Shown in pieces: positions 7,035-48,817 of a stretch of 56,075 nt of DNA. The position numbers were made by a program, and so were the translations under genes. How positions within the stretch are numbered: the first letter of the stretch is position 1; every line of letters starts with the position of its first letter. Below the pieces are notes generated by a model that ran no database searches, was not told the origin of the DNA, and worked only from the letters and a program-made list of their open reading frames with translations. This stretch comes from Candidatus Heimdallarchaeota archaeon. Lineage in GTDB: Archaea; Asgardarchaeota; Heimdallarchaeia; JABLTI01. The stretch spans positions 1-56,075 of the forward strand of contig DXJV01000045.1 of the NCBI GenBank assembly GCA_019056785.1, in the 5' to 3' direction.

Positions 7035-10000
7035 GTGTCAGAAGTAAAAATTCTTTTGGTAGATGACGAAGAAACTTTATTAGAAATTTCGAAAGTTTAC
7101 ATCGAAAAGCTAGATGAAAGTTTTCGAATTCATACAGTCAAGTCTGCAAAAGAAGCAATTAAATTACTGAAAAAAACTCCTTTTGATGTTATTATCTCTG
7201 ACTATCAAATGCCAGAAATAGATGGCTTGAAATTCCTTTCAATTTTACGTGAGCAAGACTATGACATTCCTTTCATAATTTTTACCGGGAAAGGTAGAGA
7301 AGAAGTGGCAATTCAAGCATTAAACTTGGGTGCTGATTACTATTTACAAAAGGGAGGAGAAACCGACACCCAATTTCATGAATTAGCAAACTTAATTCGG
7401 AAATTAGTCGAGCAAAAACAAGCTGAAAAAGCTCGGCTTCATCTTTTAAATCAACAGATCAGCATTAACAAACTTGCCGTAACTTTAGGGGAAAGTCGAG
7501 ACCTAAACAAGATCTACAAAACCATTTTCAAACACATTTATTCGATTATGGATGCAGATACTTTTGTCGTTTCTTTTTATGATAGTAAATCCAACATCAT
7601 TTCCCCCGGGTATGCATTAATAAACCGCAAAGTTATAGATATCACCGTTTTTCCTGCCTTGCCACTTGAACACCCGGAAAATGAGATTCGAAAGAAAGTC
7701 ATCGAAACAAACAATTACGTTTATTTAGAAAACTTGAGAAGGGATAAATCTGGTCAAGAAAAGATGACCATCCGCAACCAGGCTGAATATACAAAATCCG
7801 CTGTTTTTGTTCCTATGAAAATTGGTGGCGAAACAATTGGAATAATTGAGGTGCATAGTTACCAGGCAAATGCTTATTCCGAACAAGATATTGAGCTCCT
7901 CTCTGCCCTTGCCAATGTTGCAGCTGTTGCCATTCAAAATGCTCGGTTGTTCAACATGCAACAAGATATCAACGAACAACTACAGCAAGAGAAAGAACGA
8001 ACACAAGCAATGCTTGATCTCATAGAAGCCCTTGTTCTTGTGTTAAACAAGAATGGCATTATTCAACGCATTAATCGTAAAGGGTGTGAAATCTTAGGCT
8101 ATACAGAAGAGGAAATATTGGGAAAGAATTGGATTGAAACCTTTTTACCTGAAGAATATCGCAAGAAAGTAAGACAACGAATAAAAAAAATTATTAAAAC
8201 CGGGGAGATTCTTTCGGTCAACATTAATCCGATAATCACTAAGGATGGCTCAGAAGTGATGATTTCTTGGAAGACGAGCATCCTTCCTGAGAAAATTGAT
8301 GGGATAGAATGTGTTTTAAGCACTGGTGTCGAAATTACTGATGAACTTGTAAAAGAAACGGAACGACTCCAAGAAGAAGAACATTATAAATATTTAACAA
8401 AAATGTCTGAAGAAGGGTTAATTATTCTTCAAGACAATAAAATAAAATTTATGAACAAAAACATGCGTAGTATTCTTGGGCTTGGAAAGGAAGAGTTGAT
8501 TGACCTTGATCCAGAGCCATTTTTACGGGGGAAGGATAAAGAGCGTTTTATTGACTTGCTAGCTACTTACAAAGAAACGGGTCACTTACCGAAAGAATTT
8601 CAATGTTGGATTTTTTCTAAAAACAATGTCAAAAAATACATCCATAACTCAATTATTTCAGTTAAAACCCCTGATGGGGCTAACCGGTATTATATTCTTG
8701 TAAAAGACATCACTGAAAAGAAACTGGCAGAGATTGCTTTGGAATCTTCCGAAAGAAAATTGCGGACAACTCTAAATGCTTTCCCATACCCGATGCATGT
8801 TGTTAATAGAAACTTGCAATTTATTATTTATAACCAAGCCATGAAGGAATGGCTAGAAAATTTAAACCTTGACATTGCCTTAGATGGAAAAACTGTTTAC
8901 GAAGCATTTCCTTTTCTCCCTCAAGAAGTAATCGATGAATATCAATACGTCTTTGATACAGGAAAAACTGTCTATAAAAAGGATTGCACTGTACTTAACG
9001 GGAGAGAAATTTTCACGGAAACGAGAAAATATCCTGTGATCGAAAAGGACAAAGTAATTTCTGTTATAACAATTATTCGTGATGTTTCCAAAGAAATCCA
9101 AATTGAACAACAATTACAAAAGAACGAAGAGACTCTACGCTTATTATTTGAAAGTTCGAGCGACGGCATCCTAATTTTGGATCAAGAGGACAATATTCTT
9201 AATGCCAATAAAAAAGCAATGGAATTCCTTGATGAAATTAAAGAAAATCTCATTAAAGCCAGCTTTAGAGATTTCCTTGATAAAAAACAGCTGAAGATTT
9301 TTACAGAGTTTAAAAAAGAACTCGAAACGAAAAAAGAAAGCAAACTTGAATTGACACTCAAAACAAAAAACAACAAGTTAATGATTACAGAAATTTCAGC
9401 CGGCTATACGAAAATTGGCAAAGAAAAGTTACTCCAGCTGATCATTCGTGACATTCAAGAGCGCAAGATTGTTGAAGAAAATCAACAAAAATACGTTAGG
9501 GATTTACAATTCCTTTCCAAAACCGCCATGGAATTCATTGGATATTTGACAGAAGATAATCTTTTCAACTATGTCGGGGATAAGATTATATCCATTTTAA
9601 AAGATGCTACAGTAATGCTTTTCGCATCAGATGGAGATAACGAAGTAACAATCAAATATTTAGCAGGGTTAGGTTCACAACACAAATTGTTGCAGAATGC
9701 ACTAAAACGTGAAATTATTGGAATGAAAATTAAACTCACACCTAAGATGATCGTTCTCCTTAAGAAACAAAAACTTTTTGAAATAGAAGATGACTATGCG
9801 GAATTAATTAAGAACGCCCTTCCAAAAAAAATTGTTGATGGTATACTCAAAAGATTGAATATCGAACATATTTATTTACGTCATTTCAACTCTAAAGAAC
9901 ACACCTTTGTTGCTGGAATTAACATTTTTATGCATAAGAAAAGGAAGTTGGAGAATTATGAGCTCATCGAGGCATTTTTAAGTCAAGCATCGATAGCTTT

Positions 10001-11048
10001 TGAAAAGCATTTTACTAGAAAGAAGCTCTTGAAATCAGAGGAACAATTTCAGCAACTAATAGAAACTATGTCTGACGGTTTGGCAATTGATGATCTTAAT
10101 GGGAGATTTATTTATGTCAATCCTCGCTTCTGCGAGATGTTGGGTTTTAGCTTGAAAGAAATTATCGGAAAGGAAGTTGTAGAGTTTATTACAAAGAAAG
10201 ATATTTCAAAATACATCAAACTAAGTAGAAAACGTTTAGCAAATGAAGCAAGCAATAAAAGCTATGAAATAACGTGGATTACAAAAAATGGGAAAGAATT
10301 GCCGACAATAGTTTCGCCGAAAATGATAAGCAATACTTCCGGCGAAATTATTGGTAGTTTTGCAGTGATAACTGATATTACAAAATTAAAGCGCTATGAA
10401 GGAAAGCTAAAAGAACAACAAAAATTGCTGCAACAACAACGGGACGAATTGGAGTCTTTTGCATCTACAATTGCCCATGATTTACGTGGAAAGATGCAAG
10501 TCATATCTCTTTACAATTCTCTTGCAAAGCATGAATATTCAGAAAAAATTACCGAAAGCATTGAAGAAATGACTTCTTTCATCGAAGATTTACTTTTCCT
10601 TGCCAAGAAGGGACAGATCTTGGGGAAGGTTACTAATGTAAACCTTGAGCAACTAATACAGCAAACAAAAGCAAAGATCGCCAAGTTGGATCCGAAACTC
10701 AAAATTGAATGTGAAAAACTCCCGACTGTCCTTGCTGATAAAATTCGATTGAAGCAAGTGTTTGAAAACCTTCTAATGAATGTCATAAAGCATGCTAAAG
10801 CCACTCACTTGAAAATATATACAAAAGAGAATAAGAAATTCCACTATATTATCATTGAGGATGATGGAACAGGCATCTCAGAAAAGACTAAAAAAGCGAT
10901 CATTGAATCCTGGAAAACAAACCGCTACAGTTCCTTCGGGTTATTAATTGTTTACAAAATAATCAAAGCACATGGTGGAGAATTGATTCTTGAGAGTGAA
11001 GAAGGAAAAGGAACAAAAATAACCTTTAGTTTGCCAAAGAAAAAATAA
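7035..11048 (+). CDS. Cytoplasmic hybrid sensor histidine kinase: REC-GAF-multiple PAS-HisKA-HATPase
   Basis: REC (LLVDDE, ISDYQMP, FTG, YLQK), GAF ('VPMKIGGETIGIIEVHS'), about 5 PAS repeats, H-box AHDLR, N-box ENLLMNVIKH, DDGTGI; no TM segments. Confidence 0.92.
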   Translation: MSEVKILLVDDEETLLEISKVYIEKLDESFRIHTVKSAKEAIKLLKKTPFDVIISDYQMPEIDGLKFLSILREQDYDIPFIIFTGKGREEVAIQALNLGADYYLQKGGETDTQFHELANLIRKLVEQKQAEKARLHLLNQQISINKLAVTLGESRDLNKIYKTIFKHIYSIMDADTFVVSFYDSKSNIISPGYALINRKVIDITVFPALPLEHPENEIRKKVIETNNYVYLENLRRDKSGQEKMTIRNQAEYTKSAVFVPMKIGGETIGIIEVHSYQANAYSEQDIELLSALANVAAVAIQNARLFNMQQDINEQLQQEKERTQAMLDLIEALVLVLNKNGIIQRINRKGCEILGYTEEEILGKNWIETFLPEEYRKKVRQRIKKIIKTGEILSVNINPIITKDGSEVMISWKTSILPEKIDGIECVLSTGVEITDELVKETERLQEEEHYKYLTKMSEEGLIILQDNKIKFMNKNMRSILGLGKEELIDLDPEPFLRGKDKERFIDLLATYKETGHLPKEFQCWIFSKNNVKKYIHNSIISVKTPDGANRYYILVKDITEKKLAEIALESSERKLRTTLNAFPYPMHVVNRNLQFIIYNQAMKEWLENLNLDIALDGKTVYEAFPFLPQEVIDEYQYVFDTGKTVYKKDCTVLNGREIFTETRKYPVIEKDKVISVITIIRDVSKEIQIEQQLQKNEETLRLLFESSSDGILILDQEDNILNANKKAMEFLDEIKENLIKASFRDFLDKKQLKIFTEFKKELETKKESKLELTLKTKNNKLMITEISAGYTKIGKEKLLQLIIRDIQERKIVEENQQKYVRDLQFLSKTAMEFIGYLTEDNLFNYVGDKIISILKDATVMLFASDGDNEVTIKYLAGLGSQHKLLQNALKREIIGMKIKLTPKMIVLLKKQKLFEIEDDYAELIKNALPKKIVDGILKRLNIEHIYLRHFNSKEHTFVAGINIFMHKKRKLENYELIEAFLSQASIAFEKHFTRKKLLKSEEQFQQLIETMSDGLAIDDLNGRFIYVNPRFCEMLGFSLKEIIGKEVVEFITKKDISKYIKLSRKRLANEASNKSYEITWITKNGKELPTIVSPKMISNTSGEIIGSFAVITDITKLKRYEGKLKEQQKLLQQQRDELESFASTIAHDLRGKMQVISLYNSLAKHEYSEKITESIEEMTSFIEDLLFLAKKGQILGKVTNVNLEQLIQQTKAKIAKLDPKLKIECEKLPTVLADKIRLKQVFENLLMNVIKHAKATHLKIYTKENKKFHYIIIEDDGTGISEKTKKAIIESWKTNRYSSFGLLIVYKIIKAHGGELILESEEGKGTKITFSLPKKK

Positions 11049-20665: not shown

Positions 20666-22174
20666 TTGAACAGAAGAACAATCAAAGTGTTTTTGAGAGA
20701 CCATTGGCTCCTGCTTGCTATCTGGTCTCTTGCACTCATTCTTCGAATCATTGTTGCAATCATTAGTAAAGGATATATCCATGCGGATGAGCAATTTCAA
20801 TCTATTGAAATTGTTTTTCGTAAAATTTTTGGCTACGGATATGTCCCTTGGGAATTCCAGCGAGGTATTCGTTCGTGGTTATATCCGGGCATTGTTTGGC
20901 TCATCTTTAAAACAATGCTTTTTCTGGGTTGCACCCGGATTGAAACTATTCTTATTGCTGTTCGACTTTTCTCTGCAGCTTGTTCAATGATCACTGTTAT
21001 TACCAGTTATTTTCTTGGGAAACTCTTTTTCTCAAAACGAGTGGGATTGATTGCCACCTTCTTTGTAGCTATTTGGTTTGACTTTTTATTTTGGTCCGCT
21101 CGCACCATTACGGACAGCATTGCGATGAACTTTGCAATTTTGGGTGTGTATTTCTTTGCGAGATTACTTAAGAAACGCCAAAAGAAGGGCTCAGCCCAAA
21201 TTATTCCCCGCAAACCATTAGTTTTTGAAGCAATACACGGTTTATTGGCAGGTTTTGCCTTTGGTCTTTCATTCATGTTTAAATTTTCAACTGTCATCCT
21301 TGCAATTCCGTTTCTTGTCTTTCTTTTCATCGAACGCCGGTGGAAGGGTGCACTCTTTTCTCTGTTAGCTTTGTGTTGTATGGTTTTGGTGCAAGGATTA
21401 TTGGATTTTTATACCTGGGGGGGCTTTTTGCAGTCGCCCATAGAATTTTTCATGTATAACATTTGGACCGGCGGAAGTTCAGCTCACGGTGTTTCGCCCT
21501 TTCTTGCGTACCTCCCCTTAATGCTAGATGCTTACGGTGAATATTTCATGTTATTCTTGTTATTCATCTGTCTTGGTATAAAAAAGGATCGACTTTCACT
21601 TTACCTCTTACTAGCTGTTCTGTTTTACTTTCTTGTCTTTAATCTCATTGGTCATAAAGAATATCGATTCATCCTCCCAATAATGGCCCTTTTAGTTCTT
21701 TTCGCAGCAAAAGGGGTTCTTAAATATCCTTCTTTTATCCATAAAAAACACTTTCAAAAACAAATCTATGGTTTTCTAGCGATAGTAACAGTTGGGTTTT
21801 CGGCATCCTATGCATTTTATTTCTACTCCTTCCAACCTGCAAGACAATATTGTGATGCATTTCAATTTGTTGGGGAACAAGAAGAGTCTGAAGTCCTCCT
21901 CGTAGCTTCATTAGGAGCTTTTTTTTCGCCGGGGTATACCTATCTCCACAAAAATATCCCGGTAGGCTATTTCCGGAAAAGTACTTTTAACTACTTTATG
22001 ACAGAATTTCAAACAAACAACACTTATATCATTATCCCAGAATCAGAATACATCCCAAATTTCCAATTCTATCAGGATAGTTTTCTACACTTCAACATTA
22101 CCTTAGTGAAAATTTTCCATGGAACACATCCCAGGTTCGATGAAGGGATGTATGTCTTCAAAAATAATTTATAA
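20666..22174 (+). CDS. GT-C mannosyltransferase, GT22 (PIG-B/ALG9 family)-like
   Basis: 'HADEQFQSIE..FGYGYVPWEF..GIRSWLYP' and 'GHKEYRFILP' match the PIG-B-type DE..Q..E/WE..RS and HKExRF motifs; multi-TM. Confidence 0.85.
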   Translation: MNRRTIKVFLRDHWLLLAIWSLALILRIIVAIISKGYIHADEQFQSIEIVFRKIFGYGYVPWEFQRGIRSWLYPGIVWLIFKTMLFLGCTRIETILIAVRLFSAACSMITVITSYFLGKLFFSKRVGLIATFFVAIWFDFLFWSARTITDSIAMNFAILGVYFFARLLKKRQKKGSAQIIPRKPLVFEAIHGLLAGFAFGLSFMFKFSTVILAIPFLVFLFIERRWKGALFSLLALCCMVLVQGLLDFYTWGGFLQSPIEFFMYNIWTGGSSAHGVSPFLAYLPLMLDAYGEYFMLFLLFICLGIKKDRLSLYLLLAVLFYFLVFNLIGHKEYRFILPIMALLVLFAAKGVLKYPSFIHKKHFQKQIYGFLAIVTVGFSASYAFYFYSFQPARQYCDAFQFVGEQEESEVLLVASLGAFFSPGYTYLHKNIPVGYFRKSTFNYFMTEFQTNNTYIIIPESEYIPNFQFYQDSFLHFNITLVKIFHGTHPRFDEGMYVFKNNL

Positions 22175-22801: not shown

Positions 22802-23653
22802 TTGTTGAGGATAATGGTCTTTAAAAAGAAAGAGAAAAAGCAAAAGAAAAAGACAATCCCAAAAAAAGAGATTTTGAAAGCAATCAAGGACAAAGAATAT
22901 CTGGACCTGGGCGAACCGTTTGGTGAAAGCGCCAGGCGCTATTTAGCCTATCAATTAATGAAGATGATTGACAATCAAGAGATCACTGGAACAGTCATCA
23001 CTCCGGAGGGCGTTTTTCTTGCCCTAACCTCGTCTGAAGTGAGGAATATTGTCAAATTTATCAATGCAAAGGGTATTTGCAATTTAGACGAAGTCGCCAC
23101 CGAAAACAAATGGGACCCAAAAACAGTTAAACTCATCGCTAACAACCGGATAAATTTACTCCATCGAAAAGACAACAAAATAATCACAAGAAAAACTGCG
23201 CTTGATTTACTTGCAGAGAAACTGAATCAAAATGTTACTGTAGATCTGAATAAAGTTGCAGAAGAAATGCAATTAAAAAAGAACATTATCCTTGAATTAT
23301 TCGATACATTACTCGAGGAAAAACGAATCGAAGGCTATCTTATCAAGTCGAGCAACAAATTCCTCCCCTTAGACCTGCTCGAAGAATCTATTAAAGAGCA
23401 AATTGAAAATTATGAAATGAACAATGTTGTTGAAGTTAAATTCTCTGAAATCGCTGAAGAATTTGGCATTACTGAGGAACATGTTTACAATATTCTCTTA
23501 AGTTTATACAACAAGGGCGATATCGATGTTCAACTCAATTTAGGGCTGCGAACATGTGTAATAAAAGAAAACATTAAACCAGAAACATGGAAGGAAAGAA
23601 TCCCTGAAGAAGAGAAGAAACTCGATATCGAAGACCTCACCCAGAAAAAGTGA
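22802..23653 (+). CDS. Tandem winged-helix protein, DDRGK1/UFL1 (PCI-like WH)-like
   Basis: About 4 WH-like repeats; 'EITGTVITPEGVFLALTSSEVRNIVKFINAKGICNLDEVA' resembles the DDRGK1 C-terminal segment as recalled. Confidence 0.6.
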   Translation: MLRIMVFKKKEKKQKKKTIPKKEILKAIKDKEYLDLGEPFGESARRYLAYQLMKMIDNQEITGTVITPEGVFLALTSSEVRNIVKFINAKGICNLDEVATENKWDPKTVKLIANNRINLLHRKDNKIITRKTALDLLAEKLNQNVTVDLNKVAEEMQLKKNIILELFDTLLEEKRIEGYLIKSSNKFLPLDLLEESIKEQIENYEMNNVVEVKFSEIAEEFGITEEHVYNILLSLYNKGDIDVQLNLGLRTCVIKENIKPETWKERIPEEEKKLDIEDLTQKK

Positions 23654-23744: not shown

Positions 23745-24521
23745 ATGAGCGCAACTCCCAGCAAACCAAGAAAATTGCCAGATGAATATGATGCTTTAGT
23801 TATGAAATTGACTATGAAGTTAAAAAAGGAAGTTGGTAGCGAAATTGCTGCTTTTCTCTTAGTAGGAAGCGTTGCCCAGAAGAATTATATTCGAGGCGAT
23901 TCTGATTGTGACTTCTACCTTGTAATAAAGAAGGATCGCAAAAATCAGGTAGAGATTCTCCAGAAGATAGCAAAAATAAAAGCAGAATTTGAGAATGATC
24001 CTCAATATTCCAGCATCCTCGACTTAATGGTCTTTTTCGAAGAAGATTTAACAGAAGCAAATGTCAATGTTTCAAGTATTGTTAATTGGGTTCATATCTG
24101 GACAGGACAACAAGGGGAATTGAAAATTGGCTCTGAAAATCCCTTCATGAAGTTAAAAGTCACAGAAGCCAATTTGAAAAAAGGCGCAACGCAAATGTGC
24201 TTGGATAATGTATTCTTGATGCGGGATGGCTTTCTCAACACACACCCTGGAAATGAGGATGAATTAGCCTTCTATGGAAGCGATGCAGCTATTGCTTGTG
24301 CTCAAGCGCTACTAATCTTTATGGGAGAAAAAGGCTTTAACCGCTACAATGTCCCGGAGCTTTTTGCAGAAAAAGTAAAGATTAAAGCCGACCCCAAAGT
24401 AGTTATTGATGCCCGAGACTATCGCTTGGGAGCAAAGCTTGATAATCCCATAGAATTTGCAGAAAAATGCTATGATTTTGGATGGGCAATCTTAGAATAT
24501 ATGTTGAAAAACATTAAATGA
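23745..24521 (+). CDS. Pol-beta superfamily nucleotidyltransferase with a C-terminal helical (HEPN-like) domain
   Basis: 'LVGSVA...DSDCDF' GS-x-DxD motif, third Asp in 'ILDLM'; helical C-terminal half. Confidence 0.75.
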   Translation: MSATPSKPRKLPDEYDALVMKLTMKLKKEVGSEIAAFLLVGSVAQKNYIRGDSDCDFYLVIKKDRKNQVEILQKIAKIKAEFENDPQYSSILDLMVFFEEDLTEANVNVSSIVNWVHIWTGQQGELKIGSENPFMKLKVTEANLKKGATQMCLDNVFLMRDGFLNTHPGNEDELAFYGSDAAIACAQALLIFMGEKGFNRYNVPELFAEKVKIKADPKVVIDARDYRLGAKLDNPIEFAEKCYDFGWAILEYMLKNIK

Positions 24522-24552: not shown

Positions 24553-25221
24553 TTGAGTGTTCCAGGAAATATTGTGCACCTTCGAGATCTTGTCGGACGT
24601 GCTGAGTCAGAAATTTTCTTGATAGTTGGCCCGCCGGGTGCTGGGAAAGAATCCTTTGCAATCCAATATATGCTCGATGGCTTTGCTAATAAAATGAATG
24701 GTGTGTATGTCACAACAGATGATTTCCCTGAAGATATCACACGGAAGATGAAACTCCTTGGTAGCGACCCAGCCTCTTTAATTAAATCAAAACAATTGGA
24801 ATTTATTGATGCCTTTTCTTATCGTACCGGAGAATCAATTGATACTAATGAGATGGTGGTCGATGACATTCGCGACTTGACAGGGTTAAGTGTAATGATT
24901 AAGAAGATGATCGATACCAAAAGCAATTTGCGCTTTGTGTTCAATACCATTTCAACTATCTCTATTTACAACAGCGGAGTTGCTCTTTTAGACTTCATTC
25001 AAATGCAAGTTGCCAGATTGAAACGGAAGAACCACAGCGGGTTAATCATCGCCCATGAAGGAATCATCGATGAAAAAGTGATTCAAGGGATAAAAGCATT
25101 TGTTGATGGAGTCATTGAATTTCAGCTTTCAGAAGATGAAACTGGTAATTTGAAACGACGAGTCCGCGTTGTTTTTGCCCCGAAAATTCGAAAATCCGGT
25201 TGGGTGGACCTTTATCAATAA
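24553..25221 (+). CDS. KaiC/RAD55-like ATPase (single domain)
   Basis: Walker A GPPGAGKE, 'VYVTTDD', 'FIDAFS', 'VDGVIEF'. Confidence 0.85.
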   Translation: MSVPGNIVHLRDLVGRAESEIFLIVGPPGAGKESFAIQYMLDGFANKMNGVYVTTDDFPEDITRKMKLLGSDPASLIKSKQLEFIDAFSYRTGESIDTNEMVVDDIRDLTGLSVMIKKMIDTKSNLRFVFNTISTISIYNSGVALLDFIQMQVARLKRKNHSGLIIAHEGIIDEKVIQGIKAFVDGVIEFQLSEDETGNLKRRVRVVFAPKIRKSGWVDLYQ

Positions 25222-25309
25222 TTATAAAAAATCTGAATCTTTTTTCTTCTATTTTTTTTAAGAACTCTTTGATAAATTTAAAAGGTAGAAGAATAATTTT
25301 CTACCGTGT

Positions 25310-26023
25310 GTGGCAAAAATGGCTGATGTTGCATGGTACTCTTACTTATTGGCACTTACTCCTGCAATAATCATTGCAGCTTTATATCTTGTTAGTTACT
25401 TGATTGGCCGAAAGCAGAACAAAAAATTTGCTTTAGAAATGCTTTCGAAAATTGCTGTCCCTTTAAACGAGTATGTTAGTTCGTTCGAAAAAGTCACGCA
25501 AGAAAAAGAACGCTATCAGCTTGTTTGTCGTCCATTAAAAGATGCGCCAATGAAATCGCTTGTTGTGTTAGGCATACCACTTGGACGACCATTTATTTTC
25601 GCTTATATCTGGGACAAAATTAAGAAAAATAAGGATAAATACACGATATCTGCCAATCTCCGACGCAGACCACCTTTTGCCATAGAAATTCTTTCGAAAA
25701 AACGGAAAAAAGTCCTAAAAGGCGACCAAGAATATTTTATGGAACTTAAAGAGCTCCCCACCACTGGATTCTTGAATGAATATTTTATCATTAAAACCGA
25801 CAATCTGAAATTGGCTACAAAGTTGCTCACAAATGAAGAGCTGTTACGACTTTTAGCTAAAACAAGAAATCAAACGCTCTGGCTCTCGCTTCGCCCAGCT
25901 GTTAAGGATGTTGGCATGCAGTTCGAGTCCATTTTTGAGTACGAAGAAGAACAAATTGAAAACACTGTTCAACTCTTCATGGAAATGATCTTTAGTATTC
26001 CTTATCCCAAGAAGTGGAATTAA
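25310..26023 (+). CDS. Single-pass membrane protein, CCDC47/DUF1682 (PAT complex subunit)-like
   Basis: N-terminal TM followed by 'YLIGRKQNKKFA'; downstream segments are collinear with the CCDC47 globular domain as recalled. Confidence 0.55.
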   Translation: MAKMADVAWYSYLLALTPAIIIAALYLVSYLIGRKQNKKFALEMLSKIAVPLNEYVSSFEKVTQEKERYQLVCRPLKDAPMKSLVVLGIPLGRPFIFAYIWDKIKKNKDKYTISANLRRRPPFAIEILSKKRKKVLKGDQEYFMELKELPTTGFLNEYFIIKTDNLKLATKLLTNEELLRLLAKTRNQTLWLSLRPAVKDVGMQFESIFEYEEEQIENTVQLFMEMIFSIPYPKKWN

Positions 26024-26043: not shown

Positions 26044-27543
26044 TTAAACTACTGTCTTAAGAACTGCCGAGATATGTTCAATCACGTCTGTTGCTAAAAG
26101 GCTATTACCCAGTGTTTGTGCAGCAAGTTCTCCTGCTCTACCGTTAAGATAGGCCGCGGCGCATGTTGCACGGAAATCGTTTTTTGCTACTGCAAGAAGT
26201 GCACCCAAAACGCCCGCAAGAACATCGCCTGTTCCACCCACAGTCATTCCAGGATGACCTGTCCGGTTGACTTTTGTTTGCAAGCCATCGCTAATAACAT
26301 CCTTTTGTCCTTTTAAGAGAAGGGTGATAGCATGGGCCTTTGCAGCATCTTGAACGATTGCCATTTGTTCTTTCCAATCTTCGGGGAGCTGGTTATTGAA
26401 TAACAATTTAAATTCGCCATGATGTGGTGTGAGAAAGAACTTTTTACCTTGAAGAAGCTCAAAGTTTGATTTAACTGCCTTAAAAGCATCCGCATCAATT
26501 ATAATTGGCTTTTCTGCTGGCAATTGCTCTAAAAGTTTCCGAACAAAAGATAATGCCACACTCGAGTCACCAATTCCTGGACCGAGAACAAGACTATCAC
26601 ATTTTTTAAACAAGTCCAGAATTTCAGGGACATGAGACTCGCTGAAAAAATCACCTTGAAAAGAACGAATGATTAAATTCGGAGAAACAGCACGCATCGT
26701 TTCTGCCACGGCTGTTGGTACACAAGTATAAACCAGGTCAGCTCCTGTTCGCAAGGCAGCAAGGGATGCCAGTAAAGGGGCACCGGAATAGAAGACGCTC
26801 CCCCCAACAACTAGTACAGCGCCATTTTGTCCTTTATGGGAATTCTCTTTTCTCTTCGGAAATGCAATGGCCAAATCGCCTTTCCCCACAAACAACTCTG
26901 CCTCAGGAGGAACACCGATTCCTCGAACAATTGTTTTTTCCTTTAATTCTTCTATTAGCAAACAAGGTTTGGTAGCATGAAAAGTAACAACTAAAGAAGC
27001 ATTCACCATTAATTTTTGCATTTCCCTTCTATCTGAAAATATTCCAGAAGGGACATCTAAACTAACAATTGGAACCTTTAGAGAATTTAATAATTTAATA
27101 GCACTTTTAATTGGCTCGTAAGGTTCTTTTCGTAAGCCCACACCAAGAAGAGCATCCACAAACAAATCTTGAGAAGAAAGAAGGCCTTTAACTTTCGCTA
27201 ATTGTGTCGAATCCCGGATAACCTCGAGTCTAACAGAATGCACCATAGTGGTGAGGATTTTGTAATTCTTTTTGGCAATTTCTGAGCGAATTTTTTGTTC
27301 TGTACCAAAAAGAAGGACGGTGACAGACTTTTTTGCAGCTGCAAGATGCCGTGCTGTTACAAACCCATCGCCACCATTGTTCCCCGTGCCACACCAGATG
27401 GCAATTTTTTCTGCTTTGGGGAACCGGTCAAGTATCGCCTGGGCAGCGCTTGCACCTGCATTTTCCATTAACTGCAAAACGGAGACACCCAATTCCTCGG
27501 CATTTAAATCAATCATTTTCACTTCTTCAGCTGTTAGAACCAT
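26044..27543 (-). CDS. nnr: Bifunctional NAD(P)HX epimerase/dehydratase (NnrE-NnrD)
   Basis: LMENAG, GTGNNGGDG, DALLGVG, DVPSG, HKGQNG, GPGIG, DADA, TPHHGEF, GGTGDVLAG. Confidence 0.95.
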   Translation of the reverse strand: MVLTAEEVKMIDLNAEELGVSVLQLMENAGASAAQAILDRFPKAEKIAIWCGTGNNGGDGFVTARHLAAAKKSVTVLLFGTEQKIRSEIAKKNYKILTTMVHSVRLEVIRDSTQLAKVKGLLSSQDLFVDALLGVGLRKEPYEPIKSAIKLLNSLKVPIVSLDVPSGIFSDRREMQKLMVNASLVVTFHATKPCLLIEELKEKTIVRGIGVPPEAELFVGKGDLAIAFPKRKENSHKGQNGAVLVVGGSVFYSGAPLLASLAALRTGADLVYTCVPTAVAETMRAVSPNLIIRSFQGDFFSESHVPEILDLFKKCDSLVLGPGIGDSSVALSFVRKLLEQLPAEKPIIIDADAFKAVKSNFELLQGKKFFLTPHHGEFKLLFNNQLPEDWKEQMAIVQDAAKAHAITLLLKGQKDVISDGLQTKVNRTGHPGMTVGGTGDVLAGVLGALLAVAKNDFRATCAAAYLNGRAGELAAQTLGNSLLATDVIEHISAVLKTVV

Positions 27544-27632: not shown

Positions 27633-28271
27633 TTAATCCTTTTTACTTTCTTGCCCCACCGCAGCTTTTTCTTCCTTTGCCTGCTTTATTGCATCTTCGA
27701 TTTCAATGGCAAGCTTATCGATGAATATTTCATATTGTTCACGCAAAGCGCTCAAATCTTTGGTGAGATTTCGTATAGTTCGATTGACATCACGGGCAAT
27801 CCCTTCAAAGACATCCTCTCTTCTTTTCGACGCTTTTGAATTAGGGATAAAGATCACTTCAGCTGATTTTATTATATCTCTGAATTTCACTCGAAGTTTT
27901 GTCAGAAAACTAATGTCTCTCTCGCAAACAGATAAGAGGTCAGCAATGGTAGTAAATTGAAAGTCAATTGGAAACTCTTTCGTTAAAAGTTCTTTGAATT
28001 TATTGTAAGATTCTATTAGAATAGTTAATGTGACATCTTCCTCTGCGATTATTTCTTTGCATTCCTTATATTGTTCAATGCTATTTTTGGTTTTTACTTT
28101 TCCCATTGTCTTTAGTAACTCGAGAAAGTGAGGGAGAAGGTTTGATTCAATCCGAATGATTAGACTTTCAAAGTCATTCTTCAGTTCTTTTTGCTTTTTT
28201 GTGATTGTTTGATGCCAGGTTGTTAATTGATAATCGATAGGAATTACTCGCCCTTGTGTACTTTGCGTCAT
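27633..28271 (-). CDS. Hypothetical coiled-coil/helical-bundle protein
   Basis: 212-aa ORF with heptad-like K/E/L pattern; GAGGT RBS upstream. Confidence 0.7.
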   Translation of the reverse strand: MTQSTQGRVIPIDYQLTTWHQTITKKQKELKNDFESLIIRIESNLLPHFLELLKTMGKVKTKNSIEQYKECKEIIAEEDVTLTILIESYNKFKELLTKEFPIDFQFTTIADLLSVCERDISFLTKLRVKFRDIIKSAEVIFIPNSKASKRREDVFEGIARDVNRTIRNLTKDLSALREQYEIFIDKLAIEIEDAIKQAKEEKAAVGQESKKD

Positions 28272-42072: not shown

Positions 42073-43620
42073 TTACAGTCCTAAAGCAGTTGCAGCTTGT
42101 TTTGCGAGGTTCTGGAAAGTATTGGGAATCACTCCTATGACGATCATGAGTATAACTATGACCATCAATGGGATTATGATTTCTATTGGTGTTTCTTTGA
42201 CGTCCTTGAGGTGTTCACCAGCAGGTTTGAACCAGAGTCGTTGTAAAACAATCAAGTAATAGACGACACTCGTCACGCTAGAGAGAAGGAACAATGCAAC
42301 ACCAACATAATATTGCACATTGCCACTACTTACTGCTGCCACTACAATATTGAGTTTACTCCAGAAGCCTGGCAATGGTGGAACACCAGCCAAACTAAGG
42401 AGAGCAATTGTGAAGGCAAAAGTTGTGACAGGCATTTTATGGCCAATACCTTCGAGTTTGTCTAATTCGCGGTCGTGGAACCTGTAGAGAATTGCTCCTG
42501 CGCACAAGAATGCCAGTCCTTTCCCAAGAGCATGAGTAAGAACATGGAAATAGCTACCTTGAACTCCCAGGGTAACGACATCACTATTAATGTTTGTTAA
42601 TGTCATTGATAAGCCGAAGAGAATGAAGCCAACATTAAGGACGGTGGAGAATGCAAGTAGTCGTTTAATGTCTGTTTGTCGTAGCGCCATAAGATTGCCG
42701 ATAACCATTGTTAGAATAGAGACCCAAAGAAGGACGTACCCCACGGCACAGAGGTTTGGTAGAAGGAGAAGACTTGGTCTGAAGAAGGTGGTAAGAGTAT
42801 TAATCATTGCAAACATTCCTGTCATGATAACAACACCGGATAGCATTGCACTAATACCACTTGGCGCAGCGGGGTGTGCATCCGGCAGCCAGGTATGTAG
42901 TGGAACGATTGCTGCTTTTACACCGAAGCCAATGATTAGGGAGATGATGATTATTACATGTACACCAGAGATGCCATTCGTTGCAAGTTTTGTGAAGAGG
43001 GTTGTGCCAATTTCGGCGATGTTTAGAGTACCAGTAACACCATAGAGCAAGCTCATGCCGAAGAGGAGCATCACGCTACCAAAAGCACTCATGAATAAGT
43101 ACTTCACTCCGGCTTCCACAGGCTCAGGCTCGTCCTTTCGGAAGGAGACGAGGATATAACTCGCGATAGACATTCCTTCCCAGAAGATGAAGAGGGTCAA
43201 GAGGTCACCTGCCATGACAACACCGATCATTCCTGCAACTAACAAGAGAAGCAAGAGATAATAGCGGTCAAGGCGATCATCATGGTCCATATAACGGATG
43301 GAATAGATAGCAGTAACTGAACCCAAGATTGTGAAGATGAGGATGAACCACCAGGTCAATTGATCAAGGCGAAAGATTGTGTAAATACCTTTTTCGTAGG
43401 TCTTTGTTCCCAGCACAAGGATCAAATCTTCCGACTTGACGGGGAGAGCATTACCAAAAGCAATGATCAATCCCAACATTGCCAGGAAGCAGATATTGGC
43501 GATGATAGCATAAGTCAGGTTCCAGCCTTGAGACTCTCTTCGAGCAAAACGCCCGAGTAAGCCTATGAGGAGTGCCCCTGCGACTGCAATAATTATTGGG
43601 AGTAGCCAGAATACATTCAT
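42073..43620 (-). CDS. nuoN: Antiporter-like subunit, NuoN/MrpD-like
   Basis: 'FIFWE', 'GVKAAIVPLHTWLPDAH', 'DIKRLLAFS', 'GVPPLPGFWSK'. Confidence 0.8.
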   Translation of the reverse strand: MNVFWLLPIIIAVAGALLIGLLGRFARRESQGWNLTYAIIANICFLAMLGLIIAFGNALPVKSEDLILVLGTKTYEKGIYTIFRLDQLTWWFILIFTILGSVTAIYSIRYMDHDDRLDRYYLLLLLLVAGMIGVVMAGDLLTLFIFWEGMSIASYILVSFRKDEPEPVEAGVKYLFMSAFGSVMLLFGMSLLYGVTGTLNIAEIGTTLFTKLATNGISGVHVIIIISLIIGFGVKAAIVPLHTWLPDAHPAAPSGISAMLSGVVIMTGMFAMINTLTTFFRPSLLLLPNLCAVGYVLLWVSILTMVIGNLMALRQTDIKRLLAFSTVLNVGFILFGLSMTLTNINSDVVTLGVQGSYFHVLTHALGKGLAFLCAGAILYRFHDRELDKLEGIGHKMPVTTFAFTIALLSLAGVPPLPGFWSKLNIVVAAVSSGNVQYYVGVALFLLSSVTSVVYYLIVLQRLWFKPAGEHLKDVKETPIEIIIPLMVIVILMIVIGVIPNTFQNLAKQAATALGL

Positions 43621-43636
43621 TGTCGTTTCTTTCCTC

Positions 43637-45154
43637 CTAAGTTATTCCAAAGATTTTCGCAACTGCGTCAGTTACGAAGGTTAGGACACTGTTTGGTAAG
43701 ATACCAATAATGAAAGTCAAAAGTGCGAGGACCACAAGTGGTGCCCACATGTAGGGACTTGGGTCTTTGACATCTTTGAATTCTTCTTTTTCTGGTCCGA
43801 GAAATACATTCTTCATGAAGAGAAGAGTGTAAGTCGCTGTCAAGGCTGTTGAAAGGACTGCCATAAAGATTGCAATAATACCTAATGGATTTCCGGAGGC
43901 TAAGCCACCTTCGAAGATAATCCATTCACTCATGAATCCAGCAAGGGGTGGAAGACCGCTTAAACTCAATGCTGCAATCAATGCAACAATTGCGGTTATT
44001 GGCATTTTATAGGCCAACCCGCCGAGTTGTTTTATATCACGCCCTTTGTGATGCCCTATCTGGGTCATGAGAATGCCGGCAACCATAAAGAGGGTGCCTT
44101 TCGCAAGCGCATGGCTAACAATGTGGAACATCGACCCTGTTGCACCAAATGCGGTGAAAGTTCCAAGTCCGAAGAAGATGTAGCCCATTTGTGAGATGGA
44201 TGAATATGCAAACAGCCGTTTCGTGTCTTTCTGTGCTAATGCCATGATTCCGCCGTAGACCATAGTAAAGACTGCCAGTCCGACGAGTACCCATGTGAAA
44301 GTAACATTGCTTCCCATATCCAATATATCTGTGCAGATCCTGAGGATTGCATAAGCAGCTGTTTCGATCATCACACCACTAAGAATAGCACTGATTGGTG
44401 TTGGTGCTTCTCCGTGGGTGTCTGGAAGCCAGCTATGAAGTGGGAAGATTGCCATTTTCACTGCAAAGCCAAGCAAGAAGAGAATTGTTAGAACAAGTGT
44501 GACTGTCTTTGATACAGCAGTCATGTTGATGTTCGCAATAAGGAAGCTTCCACTTGCAGAGCCATAAGCCCAGAGGCCACCAATACCGATAAGGATAGCC
44601 ATTGCACCTACATGGGTAAACATGAAGTACTTGAATGCTATCTTCACAGAGTTTGGTTTTGAACCCCATTTTGCAATGATGAAGTAGGAGGGTATAAGCA
44701 TTAGTTCCCAGAAGACGTAGAATTGAACAAGATCGCCTGCAAGGATAACGCCAACCATCCCAGCAATATAGAGAACTAAAAGAGCATAATATGCCCCTTG
44801 ATTCTCTTCCTTCTTCATATAACCAAAGCTATACATTACTGCAGCTAAGGAAAGAATGAAGATAATTGCGGCAATGGGGAAGCTTAGGCTGTCAGCTATC
44901 AGTTTGAAGCCAATTGTTACATTCTTCGATCCAAGATTGAAATTAATCCATTTATTCCAACCTTCAGAGTGAATGTTGCCTAAACCATCATTAAGGACAT
45001 CCCCAAGAGACAGGGCAAAGAATACAGCGCTGATAAGCACAAAGATGAAGGCCGACCATTTCGCTGCGTGGTCATTCCACTTCCCAAGGAAGAAGACAAT
45101 GATAGGCGCAAGTAAGAGAATTGCAATGGAAATGATAAGTGTAAAATTGAACAT
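43637..45154 (-). CDS. nuoM: Antiporter-like subunit, NuoM-like
   Basis: 'FYVFWELMLIPSY', 'VKMAIFPLHSWLPDTHGEAP', 'AYSSISQMG', 'GFMSE'. Confidence 0.85.
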   Translation of the reverse strand: MFNFTLIISIAILLLAPIIVFFLGKWNDHAAKWSAFIFVLISAVFFALSLGDVLNDGLGNIHSEGWNKWINFNLGSKNVTIGFKLIADSLSFPIAAIIFILSLAAVMYSFGYMKKEENQGAYYALLVLYIAGMVGVILAGDLVQFYVFWELMLIPSYFIIAKWGSKPNSVKIAFKYFMFTHVGAMAILIGIGGLWAYGSASGSFLIANINMTAVSKTVTLVLTILFLLGFAVKMAIFPLHSWLPDTHGEAPTPISAILSGVMIETAAYAILRICTDILDMGSNVTFTWVLVGLAVFTMVYGGIMALAQKDTKRLFAYSSISQMGYIFFGLGTFTAFGATGSMFHIVSHALAKGTLFMVAGILMTQIGHHKGRDIKQLGGLAYKMPITAIVALIAALSLSGLPPLAGFMSEWIIFEGGLASGNPLGIIAIFMAVLSTALTATYTLLFMKNVFLGPEKEEFKDVKDPSPYMWAPLVVLALLTFIIGILPNSVLTFVTDAVAKIFGIT

Positions 45155-45170
45155 TGTTTTCCTTTGCCTC

Positions 45171-47306
45171 CTAAATCGTGAATAATAATACTGCCAATAG
45201 GATTATTGCTCCTAGCAGCATATAGATGAAGTTTACCGATAGAATCCCTGTCTGGGTTTTTCTGACAACTTCACCCGTCTTCATTGTTCCTGAAGCGATG
45301 ACATAATTTGTGCGGTCAATCACTTTCAAGTCGAAGTATTCGTAAGTTAGTTCTGCGAAGCGCTTGAATTTCCGAAGACACCAATAAATGGCGGTATTCA
45401 TGTACCATCGTTTGTACAGGAAGGTGTTAATTCCTTTGAGGAATTTGCTCTTCTCGATCATTGCTCTGGAATCCCACTTTCTTGTCATGAAGAAGAATAT
45501 TGCAGGGATACCTCCAGCAGCAAGAATTCCAAGAGTAATCCAAAATGTCGGAGGTTCGAAGCCAAATGTATGGCTCAAGAAGTGCCCATAAGGAACGATT
45601 GTTTCTTCCACAGTGACAGACATTGCAGCAAACCAATTGTTCTTCGTGACAAAGTTTTCCACGAGTGGCGAAAGGAAGCCAAGAACAACGGTCCCGGCCA
45701 TTAAAATCCACAACGGAAGCCATAAAGTGACACCCGGTTTGTGAAGATGGCCATGATTCTCTTTTTCCACCTCTTTCACATGCTCGGTTTTTTCTCCGAA
45801 GAAGCTCCAACCGAGGAAGCGAATGGTGTAAAAGATGGTCATAATTGCTGCTACAGCTGCAAATGTAAAGAAGACCCAACCCATTGGATTGTGCTCATGA
45901 GTTGCAAGTTCCCAACTGACGCCGAAAACGCTTTCTTTGCTGAAGAACCCACCTAACGGGGGAACACCGGCAAGAGAAAGACCACCAATGAGCATCGGCC
46001 AGAAGACTTTTGGCATATCTTTTCGAAGCCCACCCATTTCATCGACATATTTCGTATGCACAGTATGAATAATTGCTCCAGCAGATAAGAACAACAGTGC
46101 CTTAAAGACTGCGTGGGAAAGCATATGGAAGGAACCGGCAAAATAGCCTACGACTTCAAATGCCCCATGGCCATTGTCTATTGGTGCGATTAACCCACCA
46201 GCACCAAGACCGAGGAACATATAGCCTAATTGTGAGATTGTGCTGAAAGCGAGGATCTTTTTGAGTTCCGTTGCTGACATTCCCATTGTTGCCGCCATGA
46301 AAGCAGTAAAGGCACCGATCATTCCGACAACAATGAAATAATACTGCAAGATATCATAGTGCAATTCGTGTAATCCCATGTACCACATCGGGAAGGTTCG
46401 GACAACCATATACACACCAGCTTTCACCATTGCAGCAGCATGAATGAGGGCTGAAACGGTTGTTGGACCGGCCATTGCTTCTGGGAGCCAGAACTGGAGT
46501 GGGAATTGTGCTGATTTGCCAATTGATCCTCCGAAGATCAGGAGAGCAGTTAGCAAGAGGACATTGTTGTTCTTCAAAGTGGTAATCCAGGTAAGATCAC
46601 TCATCAATTCTTTGTAGTTTACAGTCTTTGCAAACCAGAAGAGGATGAGAATTCCTGTTAGCATCATTACATCACCAATTCTGGTTGTAATGAATGCTTT
46701 CAAGCCTGCATGAGAATTATAGTCGCCTTCTGTTTCTTCCTTAATGGTGAATTCTCGTGGGTCTTGTTTGTTCTTCTTTGTAAAGAAGTAGCCAATTAGT
46801 GCATAGGAACAGAATCCCACAATCTCCCAGCCAACAAATGATTGGAAGAAGTTATTGGCCATAACAAGAAAGACCATTCCACCAATGAATAGCTGCATCA
46901 AAAACCAATAACGGTTTAGATGCTTGTCGCCTTTCATGTAGCCAACGCCAAAAATCATAATCAGCATTCCTACACCACTGGCGAAAGAGGCAATCATCAC
47001 AGTTAGTGGGTCGATTAGCACACCAAACTGGATTGCCCATTGTCCTTGTATCGGCATAAACCAGTAGTTTGCAATAATCCATTCGTAGCCGGAATCGCCT
47101 GTATAAACATCGACAACTAGGAGAATGCTGAAGATGAAAGCAAGAAACGCTGTTGCAGTTGCCGTCCAATCGCGGATACCGAGAAGAACATTCTTTGCTT
47201 TTCCGTCTTTTAATTTGTTGGCAAGAAAGCCAATGAGCGGAGCAATGAGTGCCCCTGCAAACGGTATCGCCCAGTTAAGAATCGCTGCTTCTTTTAAGAG
47301 TACCAT
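45171..47306 (-). CDS. nuoL: Antiporter-like subunit, NuoL-like, with C-terminal lateral helix
   Basis: 'GWEIVGFCSY', 'KSAQFPLQFWLPEAMAGPTTVSALIH', 'STISQLGY', 'FFSKE', 'DLKVID...RKTQTG' lateral helix. Confidence 0.9.
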   Translation of the reverse strand: MVLLKEAAILNWAIPFAGALIAPLIGFLANKLKDGKAKNVLLGIRDWTATATAFLAFIFSILLVVDVYTGDSGYEWIIANYWFMPIQGQWAIQFGVLIDPLTVMIASFASGVGMLIMIFGVGYMKGDKHLNRYWFLMQLFIGGMVFLVMANNFFQSFVGWEIVGFCSYALIGYFFTKKNKQDPREFTIKEETEGDYNSHAGLKAFITTRIGDVMMLTGILILFWFAKTVNYKELMSDLTWITTLKNNNVLLLTALLIFGGSIGKSAQFPLQFWLPEAMAGPTTVSALIHAAAMVKAGVYMVVRTFPMWYMGLHELHYDILQYYFIVVGMIGAFTAFMAATMGMSATELKKILAFSTISQLGYMFLGLGAGGLIAPIDNGHGAFEVVGYFAGSFHMLSHAVFKALLFLSAGAIIHTVHTKYVDEMGGLRKDMPKVFWPMLIGGLSLAGVPPLGGFFSKESVFGVSWELATHEHNPMGWVFFTFAAVAAIMTIFYTIRFLGWSFFGEKTEHVKEVEKENHGHLHKPGVTLWLPLWILMAGTVVLGFLSPLVENFVTKNNWFAAMSVTVEETIVPYGHFLSHTFGFEPPTFWITLGILAAGGIPAIFFFMTRKWDSRAMIEKSKFLKGINTFLYKRWYMNTAIYWCLRKFKRFAELTYEYFDLKVIDRTNYVIASGTMKTGEVVRKTQTGILSVNFIYMLLGAIILLAVLLFTI

Positions 47307-47321
47307 TTCTCATTCACTCTC

Positions 47322-47663
47322 CTAATATTTCAGGCTGTTCAATCTTTGAACGTTCAGGGAGCCATACATTCGATAGGCTTGAATTATCAAAGCCAAGGCA
47401 ACACCTGCTACACATCCTCCGACACAGATGCTGAGAATCACAACTGCGTGTGGGAGAGGATCAACTACTGCGCTCGTACTAAAGATATTAGAGAAGGTTA
47501 TGAAATTCAAATGCGCTGCGTCAAGCAATAACTCTATAGCAATTAGGAACTTGATCATGTTTTGCTTTGAAGCAAAGGCATAAGCTCCAATCACTAAGAG
47601 CAGTGCAGAGAACGCCAGTACGATATAGATGTTAGTAAAGGGTAAGGAAATTGTAATAGCCAT
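47322..47663 (-). CDS. nuoK: NuoK-like subunit
   Basis: Three TM helices, 'NMIKFLIAIELL', C-terminal 'LNSLKY'. Confidence 0.85.
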   Translation of the reverse strand: MAITISLPFTNIYIVLAFSALLLVIGAYAFASKQNMIKFLIAIELLLDAAHLNFITFSNIFSTSAVVDPLPHAVVILSICVGGCVAGVALALIIQAYRMYGSLNVQRLNSLKY

Positions 47664-48070
47664 TACGTTTCTTCCTCCTTGAGGTCTTCGGCATCCTTTC
47701 GTTCCAGGATAACGAATTTATCTGTTTCACACATTTCTGTTCTGAATTCAGTACATTGTTCTTCCATTCCTTTGACGATAGTAGCTGCGCCTTCAGATGC
47801 AATGAATAACAAAATACCAACAATAATTATGTCGATACCTTTCGCATCCCAAAGGACATACCCCACTGCTCGTCCGACATCCCGAAGGGTTCCATTAACA
47901 ATGTATGGATGATCAACACGTGTATCATCTCCTGAATCATCGACTCGCAAGCCATTTGTGTTTCCCAGATCGTTGAAATCCCAGAGACCGTAGAGCAGGA
48001 AGCCATACAAGCCCAGCGCAAGGACAATAGCGCCACTTGCAATGAGAATTTGTTTTGTCATTCGTTTCAT
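47663..48070 (-). CDS. Small membrane subunit, NuoJ C-terminal half-like
   Basis: TM-loop-'VGYVLW...DIIIVGILLFIA..GA' pattern; position between J(N) and K; overlapping start/stop codons. Confidence 0.6.
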   Translation of the reverse strand: MKRMTKQILIASGAIVLALGLYGFLLYGLWDFNDLGNTNGLRVDDSGDDTRVDHPYIVNGTLRDVGRAVGYVLWDAKGIDIIIVGILLFIASEGAATIVKGMEEQCTEFRTEMCETDKFVILERKDAEDLKEEET

Positions 48071-48375: not shown

Positions 48376-48410
48376 ATTTTCACATCCTTATTTTCACTCT
48401 CGTGTCGCTC

Positions 48411-48815: not shown

Positions 48816-48817
48816 TA

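Follow-up and report, generated by a model that had tools for sequence, protein, structure and literature searches.

The stretch of DNA analyzed here, hereafter called the window, is a 56,075-nucleotide contig of Candidatus Heimdallarchaeota archaeon (GenBank assembly GCA_019056785.1, contig DXJV01000045.1). It is contig 41 of a genome that comprises 2.87 Mb in 102 contigs and is 82.5% complete. An earlier note on this DNA proposed that an open frame of 237 codons at positions 25310–26023 (+ strand) encodes an archaeal relative of CCDC47 (calumin), a eukaryotic protein that is a subunit of the PAT complex and of the multipass and SND3 translocons. Docked on the ribosome at the endoplasmic reticulum, CCDC47 aids the assembly of multi-pass membrane proteins, and the literature regards it as confined to eukaryotes. 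Our analyses of sequence profiles and predicted structures point with high confidence to a stripped-down homolog of CCDC47, whose function can be proposed only more tentatively.

The mechanical start of the open reading frame (ORF) is a GTG codon at 25310, and an ATG codon lies three codons into the frame at 25319. Because this ATG is the start in all 21 close orthologs, it is probably the true initiation codon, and the gene is best taken as 25319–26023 (+), encoding 234 amino acids. The close homologs are 67–98% identical and come from metagenome-assembled genomes labeled Heimdallarchaeota or “Asgard group.” Within the genus, the nonsynonymous divergence (dN) of the gene is 0.16–0.25 and synonymous sites are saturated; the one pair for which the ratio of nonsynonymous to synonymous divergence (dN/dS) is computable gives a value of ~0.06. 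Thus, the ORF is a real gene under strong purifying selection, and not a chance reading frame. It is preceded by a 97-nucleotide intergenic spacer (25222–25318, +), in which the stop codon of the upstream gene is followed by an oligo-T run and a TTTAAAA element lies ~35 nucleotides before the ATG. These elements may mark a promoter belonging to the gene itself, although in such AT-rich DNA they are no more than suggestive. No Rfam match and no tRNA were found in the window.

The encoded protein is predicted to carry a single N-terminal transmembrane (TM) helix, defined by its one hydrophobic stretch (residues ~9–32 of the 237-codon frame; 25334–25405, +). In the structural model described below, a continuous helix extends across residues 2–52. 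The N-terminal flank of the TM segment (MAD) has a net charge of −1 and the C-terminal flank (GRKQNKK) a net charge of +4, which under the positive-inside rule predicts an outside N-terminus and a cytoplasmic C-terminus. The TM helix runs into a juxtamembrane motif, YLIGRKQNKK (25397–25426, +), whose consensus, Y-x-x-G-x-x-x-N-x-K, is the most conserved segment of the whole family. In an alignment of 24 diverse relatives, mostly 18–25% identical, G33 is invariant, and R93, D109, and P121 are kept in at least 90% of the sequences. R93 and D109 are the conserved arginine and following aspartate to which the earlier note had drawn attention.

The remainder of the chain (residues ~53–237, or ~185 residues; 25466–26020, +) is predicted from the secondary structure of the model to form a cytoplasmic α/β globular domain, which includes the basic clusters KIKKNK (103) and KKRKK (130). 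The cytosolic part has a net charge of +12 and an isoelectric point (pI) of 9.6, where the family medians are +13 and 9.7. A basic surface of this kind would fit a domain that faces RNA or acidic lipid, and proves neither. Only ~8 residues lie ahead of the TM segment, leaving no acidic luminal region, in agreement with the earlier note. At the other end the globular domain closes the protein, with nothing after the profile match and neither a C-terminal coiled coil nor latch helices; in the window's genus this end is a conserved IPYP[KR] motif.

Sequence profiles provide the first line of evidence for a relationship with CCDC47. The whole protein matches PF07946 (CCDC47, formerly DUF1682) with 30.1 bits (E = 3.5e-7), where the gathering cut-off is 27.7 bits. 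The match consists of two collinear stretches: residues 20–63 align with profile positions 9–49 (15.9 bits) and take in the TM segment and the juxtamembrane motif, and residues ~95–187 align with positions 99–194 (12.3 bits) and cover part of the globular region. These are the same blocks that the earlier note had named as collinear with CCDC47. Eleven of the 24 diverse relatives, at 20–25% identity, match PF07946 independently (best E = 3.3e-8), and a 308-amino-acid relative from sister family f3 spans profile positions 8–314 of 326 in a single stretch (32.6 bits). In control genomes, PF07946 yields no match above its cut-off.

Other sequence searches set bounds on this relationship. Searches of the PDB with the protein alone, with the family profile, and with a tailed relative reached no CCDC47 chain; the human chain is missed by HMMER profiles of the family. 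The window's protein also gave no match, at E values up to 10, to the models for DUF3137 (PF11335) and for TtfA (PF28092), the mycobacterial trehalose monomycolate transport factor A. A lone weak match to Escherichia coli YdfO (2HH8, E = 0.004) was treated as chance because neither of the two fold searches bears it out.

A second line of evidence comes from structure. From the diverse alignment, AlphaFold2 produced a confident model, with a mean predicted local distance difference test (pLDDT) score of 92.7 and a predicted template modeling (pTM) score of 0.87. This model was matched against known structures by Foldseek and by VIA-align, an aligner independent of Foldseek. The top three Foldseek matches in the PDB are 7TM3 chain 4 (E = 1.8e-10, TM score 0.71), 9I78 chain 4, and 6W6L chain 7, with E values over the three chains of 1.8e-10 to 1.7e-6. 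VIA-align superimposes 222 of 237 residues on residues 135–401 of 7TUT chain 4 (Z = 18.4) with a root-mean-square deviation (rmsd) of 3.2 Å, and scores 9I78 chain 4 at Z = 16.8. The alignment reaches the last residues of the archaeal protein, and the rabbit chain stops aligning at 401, which agrees with the earlier view that the C-terminal coiled coil is lacking. The next structure is TtfA (6T84; Z = 11.8 over 156 residues, Foldseek E = 1.2e-4), and everything else scores 6.6 or lower. Among predicted structures, an ESM Atlas cluster that is named CCDC47 and contains only eukaryotes matches with a TM score of 0.76 over 223 residues.

The matched chains are identified as CCDC47 indirectly: of the subunits that the human TMCO1, rabbit multipass, and fungal SND3 translocons have in common, CCDC47 is the sole one to combine a single TM domain with a globular domain in the cytosol (PMC7505659, PMC12572126). 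Sequence identity to the solved chains is 12–14%. Given that Pfam, solved structures, and predicted structures agree, and that they are collinear from the TM helix through the juxtamembrane motif to the end of the domain, we judge it very likely that the archaeal protein is a true homolog of the TM-plus-globular core of CCDC47. The central proposal of the earlier note is therefore borne out both by a profile match above the gathering cut-off and by its top structural matches.

Homologs of this protein are found well outside the window's genus. Of 400 genomes in the phylum, 116 carry a copy that the family profile detects. Counted by family, the gene is present in 10 of 11 genomes of f1, 26 of 31 of f3, 3 of 3 of f4, 8 of 12 of f5, 22 of 22 of f6 (often with two copies per genome), and 2 of 2 of f7; across the window's class, it is close to universal. 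Some other Asgard families carry the gene and others lack it, including one with 0 of 135 genomes. Named relatives come from Hermod-, Baldr-, and Jordarchaeia, as well as from Bathyarchaeia, where the protein is called DUF3137 by NCBI. In the ESM Atlas, clusters of the same size and shape are labeled Methanobacteriota, Chloroflexota, and Acidobacteriota. Because these non-Asgard clusters and TtfA share the fold, the TM-anchored domain is an old prokaryotic module, present in other archaea and probably in bacteria, rather than an Asgard novelty. The CCDC47-like family is thus not peculiar to Asgard archaea, although judged by its sequences the Heimdall branch is the part of this module most like CCDC47.

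A maximum-likelihood tree puts the window's protein on a long stem and groups it with proteins of families f2–f5 of the same class (support 92/87). The opposite half of the tree contains a branch (loci L048, L049, L050, and L058) whose genes lie beside those for CstA transporters and ArsA/Get3-type ATPases and whose proteins do not match PF07946. At L048, L050, and L058, one or two conserved ORFs of ~100 amino acids without a Pfam family also accompany the CstA-linked relatives. These small ORFs were considered as candidates for Asterix, the PAT-complex partner of CCDC47, and were rejected, as they have at most one hydrophobic segment and not three TM segments.

Most branches of the family end in a Lys/Arg-rich tail of 10–72 residues, and the window's genus has none. 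Examples include tails of 72 residues at L042 (31 of them Lys or Arg), 34 at L008, 29 at L044, and 19 at L041. Because both halves of the tree include tailed proteins, as does every sister clade, the tail-less state is more likely to reflect loss than an ancestral condition. The description of this protein as a “minimal ancestral core” in the earlier note is therefore not supported, given that nearly every other branch, sister clades included, bears such a tail.

In the literature searched, we found no paper that mentions both CCDC47 and Asgard archaea, and none that reports an archaeal CCDC47. Papers that mention CCDC47 together with archaea concern TMCO1/Oxa1, and DUF1682 or PF07946 was found only in plant papers. 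The multipass translocon has been described as a eukaryotic invention, with an archaeal origin given for its insertase, TMCO1, alone (PMC12572126, PMC7505659). The main list of translocon-linked Asgard eukaryotic signature proteins, that of Eme et al. 2023, includes OST and TRAP but not CCDC47 (PMC10307638), and no entry for CCDC47, DUF1682, or PF07946 was found in its supplements. Likewise, two structure-based Asgard surveys do not mention CCDC47 in their text, and nothing on it was found in a structural-clustering preprint or in the supplements of Makarova 2024. Public relatives already carry precomputed PF07946 tags in databases. What is new here is therefore not categorically so: it is a tail-less, prokaryotic form in a new gene context, in a genome where Asterix was not found.

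That gene context begins with two genes directly upstream on the same strand. The first encodes a 258-amino-acid protein of the Pol-β-superfamily nucleotidyltransferases (NTases; 23745–24521, +). Its PF01909 score is 20.6 bits versus a cut-off of 21, and two orthologs score at or just over that cut-off. The catalytic G-S...D-x-D motif is kept in most members. The second gene encodes a RecA-fold (KaiC-like) protein of 222 amino acids (24553–25221, +; PF06745, E = 9.3e-24). Its Walker A sequence is GPPGAGKE, with Glu where Ser or Thr is usual, a form that may lack activity. Because Walker A is degenerate in most orthologs, the family looks like a non-catalytic pseudo-ATPase scaffold.

The NTase, RecA-fold, and CCDC47-like genes are adjacent and on the same strand in the window and in close relatives. 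The same trio recurs beside CCDC47-like proteins that are just 21–23% identical to the window's protein, with E values of 1.6e-28 and 2.4e-13 for the NTase and 2.3e-23 and 2.4e-15 for the RecA-fold protein. A survey of one locus from each of 19 families revealed the pair, or one member of it, next to the CCDC47-like gene in f2 and f4, in f5 with an altered order, in f29 in divergent orientation, and in f33 with the NTase alone; the other families surveyed do not show it. Among altered arrangements, the CCDC47-like gene precedes the RecA-fold gene at L044, the two are divergent at L057, and the NTase gene precedes the CCDC47-like gene at L060. True RecA-fold orthologs (E ≤ 1e-43) occur only in f1–f5 and f29, and adjoin CCDC47-like genes in five of these six families (f1, f2, f4, f5, and f29). 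In f3, both genes are kept 1.8 Mb apart. In f6, the CCDC47-like gene is present in 22 of 22 genomes and the RecA-fold ortholog in at most 1 of 22. The cassette-linked CCDC47-like proteins form one clade in the tree. This cassette in five Heimdall families, the tail-lessness that looks derived, and the presence of similarly sized look-alikes in other archaea and probably in bacteria are further new elements of our findings.

Downstream, in convergent orientation, lies a gene for a bifunctional NAD(P)H-hydrate repair enzyme with YjeF_N and Carb_kinase domains (26044–27543, −; Pfam E = 5.7e-49 and 7.8e-43). Among 23 loci examined for recurrent neighbors, this enzyme appears at 6 and small Ras/Arf-type GTPases appear at 4. 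In f6 (L045, G067:C1:1381460-1392116; and L046), one of the usual two CCDC47-like paralogs sits next to a tandem pair of genes for Arf-family GTPases (PF00025, E = 6.9e-48). Beyond the repair enzyme, a 212-amino-acid protein without a Pfam family (27633–28271, −) occupies the same position in relatives (23% identity and E = 3.7e-14 to a 205-amino-acid protein of L006).

Several additional genes were observed farther from the cassette. An Alg9-like GT22 mannosyltransferase, a member of the endoplasmic reticulum-type dolichol-linked glycosyltransferase family (PF03901, E = 4.2e-48), is encoded at 20666–22174 (+); in relative L007, it is likewise encoded within a few genes of the cassette (939–2597). 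A region at 42073–51216 (−) has a G+C content of 0.44 versus ~0.37 and holds a complex-I/Mrp-type membrane-bound hydrogenase-like operon, with three Proton_antipo_M subunits, NADHdh, and a protein resembling the 49-kDa/NiFe large subunit. A hybrid sensor of 1,337 amino acids with receiver, GAF, several PAS, and histidine-kinase ATPase domains is encoded at 7035–11048 (+).

Immediately before the NTase gene is one for a 279-amino-acid protein with a polybasic N-terminus that forms a single-chain winged-helix array resembling UFL1 and DDRGK1 (22814–23653, +). It matches PF09743 with 24.9 bits, where the cut-off is 23.2, and also shows weak matches to DDRGK and PCI, with the DDRGK match preceding that of UFL1. 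Its model has a pLDDT of 74.7, rising above 85 in the core. The five best Foldseek matches are all UFL1 chains (E = 1.5e-9 to 1.4e-6), including the engineered DDRGK1-UFL1 fusion 8B9X and three structures of the E3-UFM1 machinery bound to the 60S subunit. VIA-align places 234 residues on the 8B9X fusion with Z = 13.1. The rmsd of 9.0 Å is loose, as would be expected of a flexible array. Genome searches did not find Ufm1 (PF03671); UFC1 (PF08694) was also not found, but that search fired in no control and is thus uninformative. Divergent from this gene is one for the 101-amino-acid ribosomal stalk protein P1 (22245–22550, −), whose reading frame finishes in the characteristic acidic sequence ...EEEEEEEESGLSSLFG. 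Relatives have a recorded PF00428 match at the corresponding position.

One could imagine that this row of five genes, encoding the stalk protein P1, the UFL1/DDRGK1-like scaffold, the NTase, the RecA-fold protein, and the CCDC47-like anchor, forms a primitive membrane station for ribosome docking or quality control. If so, CCDC47 and UFL1-DDRGK1, which in eukaryotes are separate factors acting on ribosomes bound to the endoplasmic reticulum, would have had forerunners that already worked side by side in the archaeal ancestor; the latch helices, Asterix, and UFM1 would have come later. We consider this improbable. With the query used, the winged-helix gene was detected in all 10 of the genus's genomes and almost nowhere outside them. 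Its position near the CCDC47-like gene is therefore recent and may be coincidence.

What, then, might the CCDC47-like protein do? We propose, with a probability of roughly 0.45, that it serves as a membrane-tethered docking platform close to the translocon or the ribosome. In this proposal, the basic globular domain would face the cytoplasm, tethered by the TM helix as a docking platform like the CCDC47 core, and would hold a partner near membrane-embedded machinery during the biogenesis of membrane proteins. The most plausible partners would be translating ribosomes at SecYEG or at an archaeal Oxa1-type insertase. For want of a latch, contact with the ribosome or translocon would go through the basic domain and the TM helix, so that the platform might position or recruit its partner but would not gate the channel. 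In this Heimdall lineage, it would probably act together with the co-inherited NTase and RecA-fold protein. This proposal draws on the CCDC47-like predicted topology, on a basic domain throughout the family, on polybasic tails in most branches, on the ribosome contacts made by the globular domain of CCDC47 itself, and on an archaeal EMC3/TMCO1-type insertase detected in the genome (91.7 bits; C58:6274-6720), which together are taken as support for it. The strong purifying selection on the gene, its near-universal presence in the class, and the adjacency of the NTase and RecA-fold genes in five Heimdall families also count in its favor.

Several observations weigh against a docking platform of this type. 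The known working parts of CCDC47 are missing. In CCDC47, the latch helices are inserted between the ribosome and Sec61, with their ends at the exit tunnel (PMC7505659, PMC12572126). Lacking them, the archaeal protein has no means of plugging or bracing the Sec channel or of extending to the tunnel. Asterix, the obligate PAT-complex partner of CCDC47 (PMC9630114), was also not found. The earlier note had seen no Asterix-like gene in the window, and this observation was upheld. The genome-wide search that it recommended for such a gene (PF03669) was less clear-cut, as it returned two matches, scoring 15.6 and 13.9 bits, that fall short of the 22.7-bit cut-off. These candidates, at C11:61099-61284 (interrupted by a TGA stop codon) and at C84:171677-171844, look like noise, and the search also fires in four bacterial control genomes. 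Absence of Asterix is therefore likely, as far as can be judged for a small protein in a genome that is 82.5% complete. Nothing thus supports a PAT-like complex here, and the “PAT complex” label that the earlier note attached to the gene is best dropped, as the defining partner was not found.

Other points tell in the same direction. The gene neighborhood contains no genes for the translocon, the signal recognition particle, or ribosome biogenesis, apart from the stalk-protein gene 2.7 kb away. The PF07946 score exceeds its cut-off by just 2.4 bits and is partly owed to the TM segment. In a different branch of the family, the neighbors are CstA transporters and ArsA/Get3-type ATPases, and the bacterial relative TtfA serves a lipid transporter; hence the fold is used with various membrane partners. 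Equally close look-alikes in shape are labeled bacterial, so the fold in itself implies no eukaryote-like role. Finally, a gene that is missing from many Asgard lineages, including all 135 genomes of one family, is not core to archaeal protein insertion.

A possible alternative is that the protein is unrelated to the translocon and instead serves as the membrane anchor of a lineage-specific, three-protein module. It would recruit the NTase and the mostly pseudo-ATPase RecA-fold scaffold to the inner face of the membrane, where the substrate might be a nucleotide, an RNA 3′ end, or a protein that becomes nucleotidylated. The cassette data fit this arrangement: the trio is adjacent and co-oriented even in relatives at 21–23% identity, adjacency recurs in altered orders (L044, L057, and L060), and RecA-fold orthologs are limited to six families and adjacent in five of them. 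In addition, the linked CCDC47-like proteins form one clade, and the NTase retains its catalytic motif. However, the CCDC47-like gene is far commoner than these partners, as f6 illustrates (22 of 22 genomes versus at most 1 of 22 for the RecA-fold gene), and the two genes in f3 persist although they are separated by 1.8 Mb. The 97-nucleotide spacer, with its T-run and TATA-like element, also parts the gene from the rest of the cassette, and shared ancestry alone could account for much of the synteny inside one class.

Somewhat more doubtful is a role as a general prokaryotic accessory of the TtfA/DUF3137 type, which would bind the cytoplasmic face of one polytopic transporter and aid its function or localization, with CCDC47 representing one specialized offshoot. 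TtfA is indeed the next-best structure, some family members match DUF3137, and the Bathyarchaeia relative bears that name. Moreover, a whole branch of the family resides beside CstA transporters, and clusters of ~230 amino acids from Chloroflexota, Acidobacteriota, and Methanobacteriota are as close as CCDC47 or closer. In contrast, the window's protein matches the CCDC47 model and not those of DUF3137 or TtfA, and its structural agreement with CCDC47 (Z = 18.4) surpasses that with TtfA (Z = 11.8). Its own clade lacks a conserved transporter neighbor; the P-type ATPase gene found at a distance of 2.3 kb is shared with the nearest relatives alone.

It is very improbable, and already disfavored, that convergence or chance accounts for the likeness to CCDC47, with a TM helix joined to a common α/β sandwich in the absence of shared ancestry: although identity to the solved chains is low, the family profiles miss the human chain, and the PF07946 score is near its cut-off, three independent lines of evidence concur collinearly over the TM helix, the motif, and the full domain, Z values of 17–18 for CCDC47 stand far above those of unrelated folds (≤6.6), and the control genomes give no above-cut-off match.

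A CCDC47 core in the class of archaea that stands closest to eukaryotes would imply a pre-eukaryotic origin for a translocon scaffold. The finding has limits, as relatives are automatically tagged in databases and the fold is an inherited prokaryotic module rather than an Asgard novelty. Nevertheless, a small, foldable protein allows the core domain to be studied free of latch helices and Asterix, and the existence of tailed and tail-less forms, along with the link to the NTase and RecA-fold protein, offers concrete experimental handles.

Comparison with known systems places the archaeal protein nearest to eukaryotic CCDC47, as represented by 7TM3 and 7TUT chain 4, 6W6L chain 7, and 9I78 chain 4. 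Both have an N-terminal TM helix that runs into a juxtamembrane helix with the Y-x-x-G-x-x-x-N-x-K motif, followed by a basic α/β globular domain, and the predicted topology, with this domain in the cytoplasm, is the same. In CCDC47, this globular domain contacts the ribosome at eL6 and at rRNA H25 (PMC7505659). Unlike CCDC47, the archaeal protein has no signal peptide, acidic luminal domain, connecting helix, latch helices, or coiled coil. At 234 amino acids, it is about half the size of CCDC47 (~480 amino acids), and it resides in a prokaryotic cassette with an NTase and a RecA-fold protein.

TtfA shares the same TM-anchored fold, but this bacterial protein gives a clearly weaker match than does CCDC47. 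TtfA works with the lipid transporter MmpL3. DUF3137 proteins and the unnamed archaeal and bacterial clusters of ~230 amino acids have the same size and the same TM-plus-domain architecture; the Atlas clusters reach shape TM scores of 0.73–0.81 and feature scores of 0.94–0.95. Some distant family members match PF11335, whereas the window's protein does not.

A further comparison is offered by the tailed protein of f3 (L042:4992-5918, 308 amino acids, P0034), which belongs to the same clade and has the same TM helix, motif, and domain at ~21% identity. Its gene lies away from the NTase/RecA-fold pair and adjoins one for a small Ras/Arf-type GTPase, a Ras-like gene directly upstream of the tailed copy. 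This protein has a 72-residue Lys/Glu/Arg-rich tail, which the CCDC47 profile matches with its C-terminal portion.

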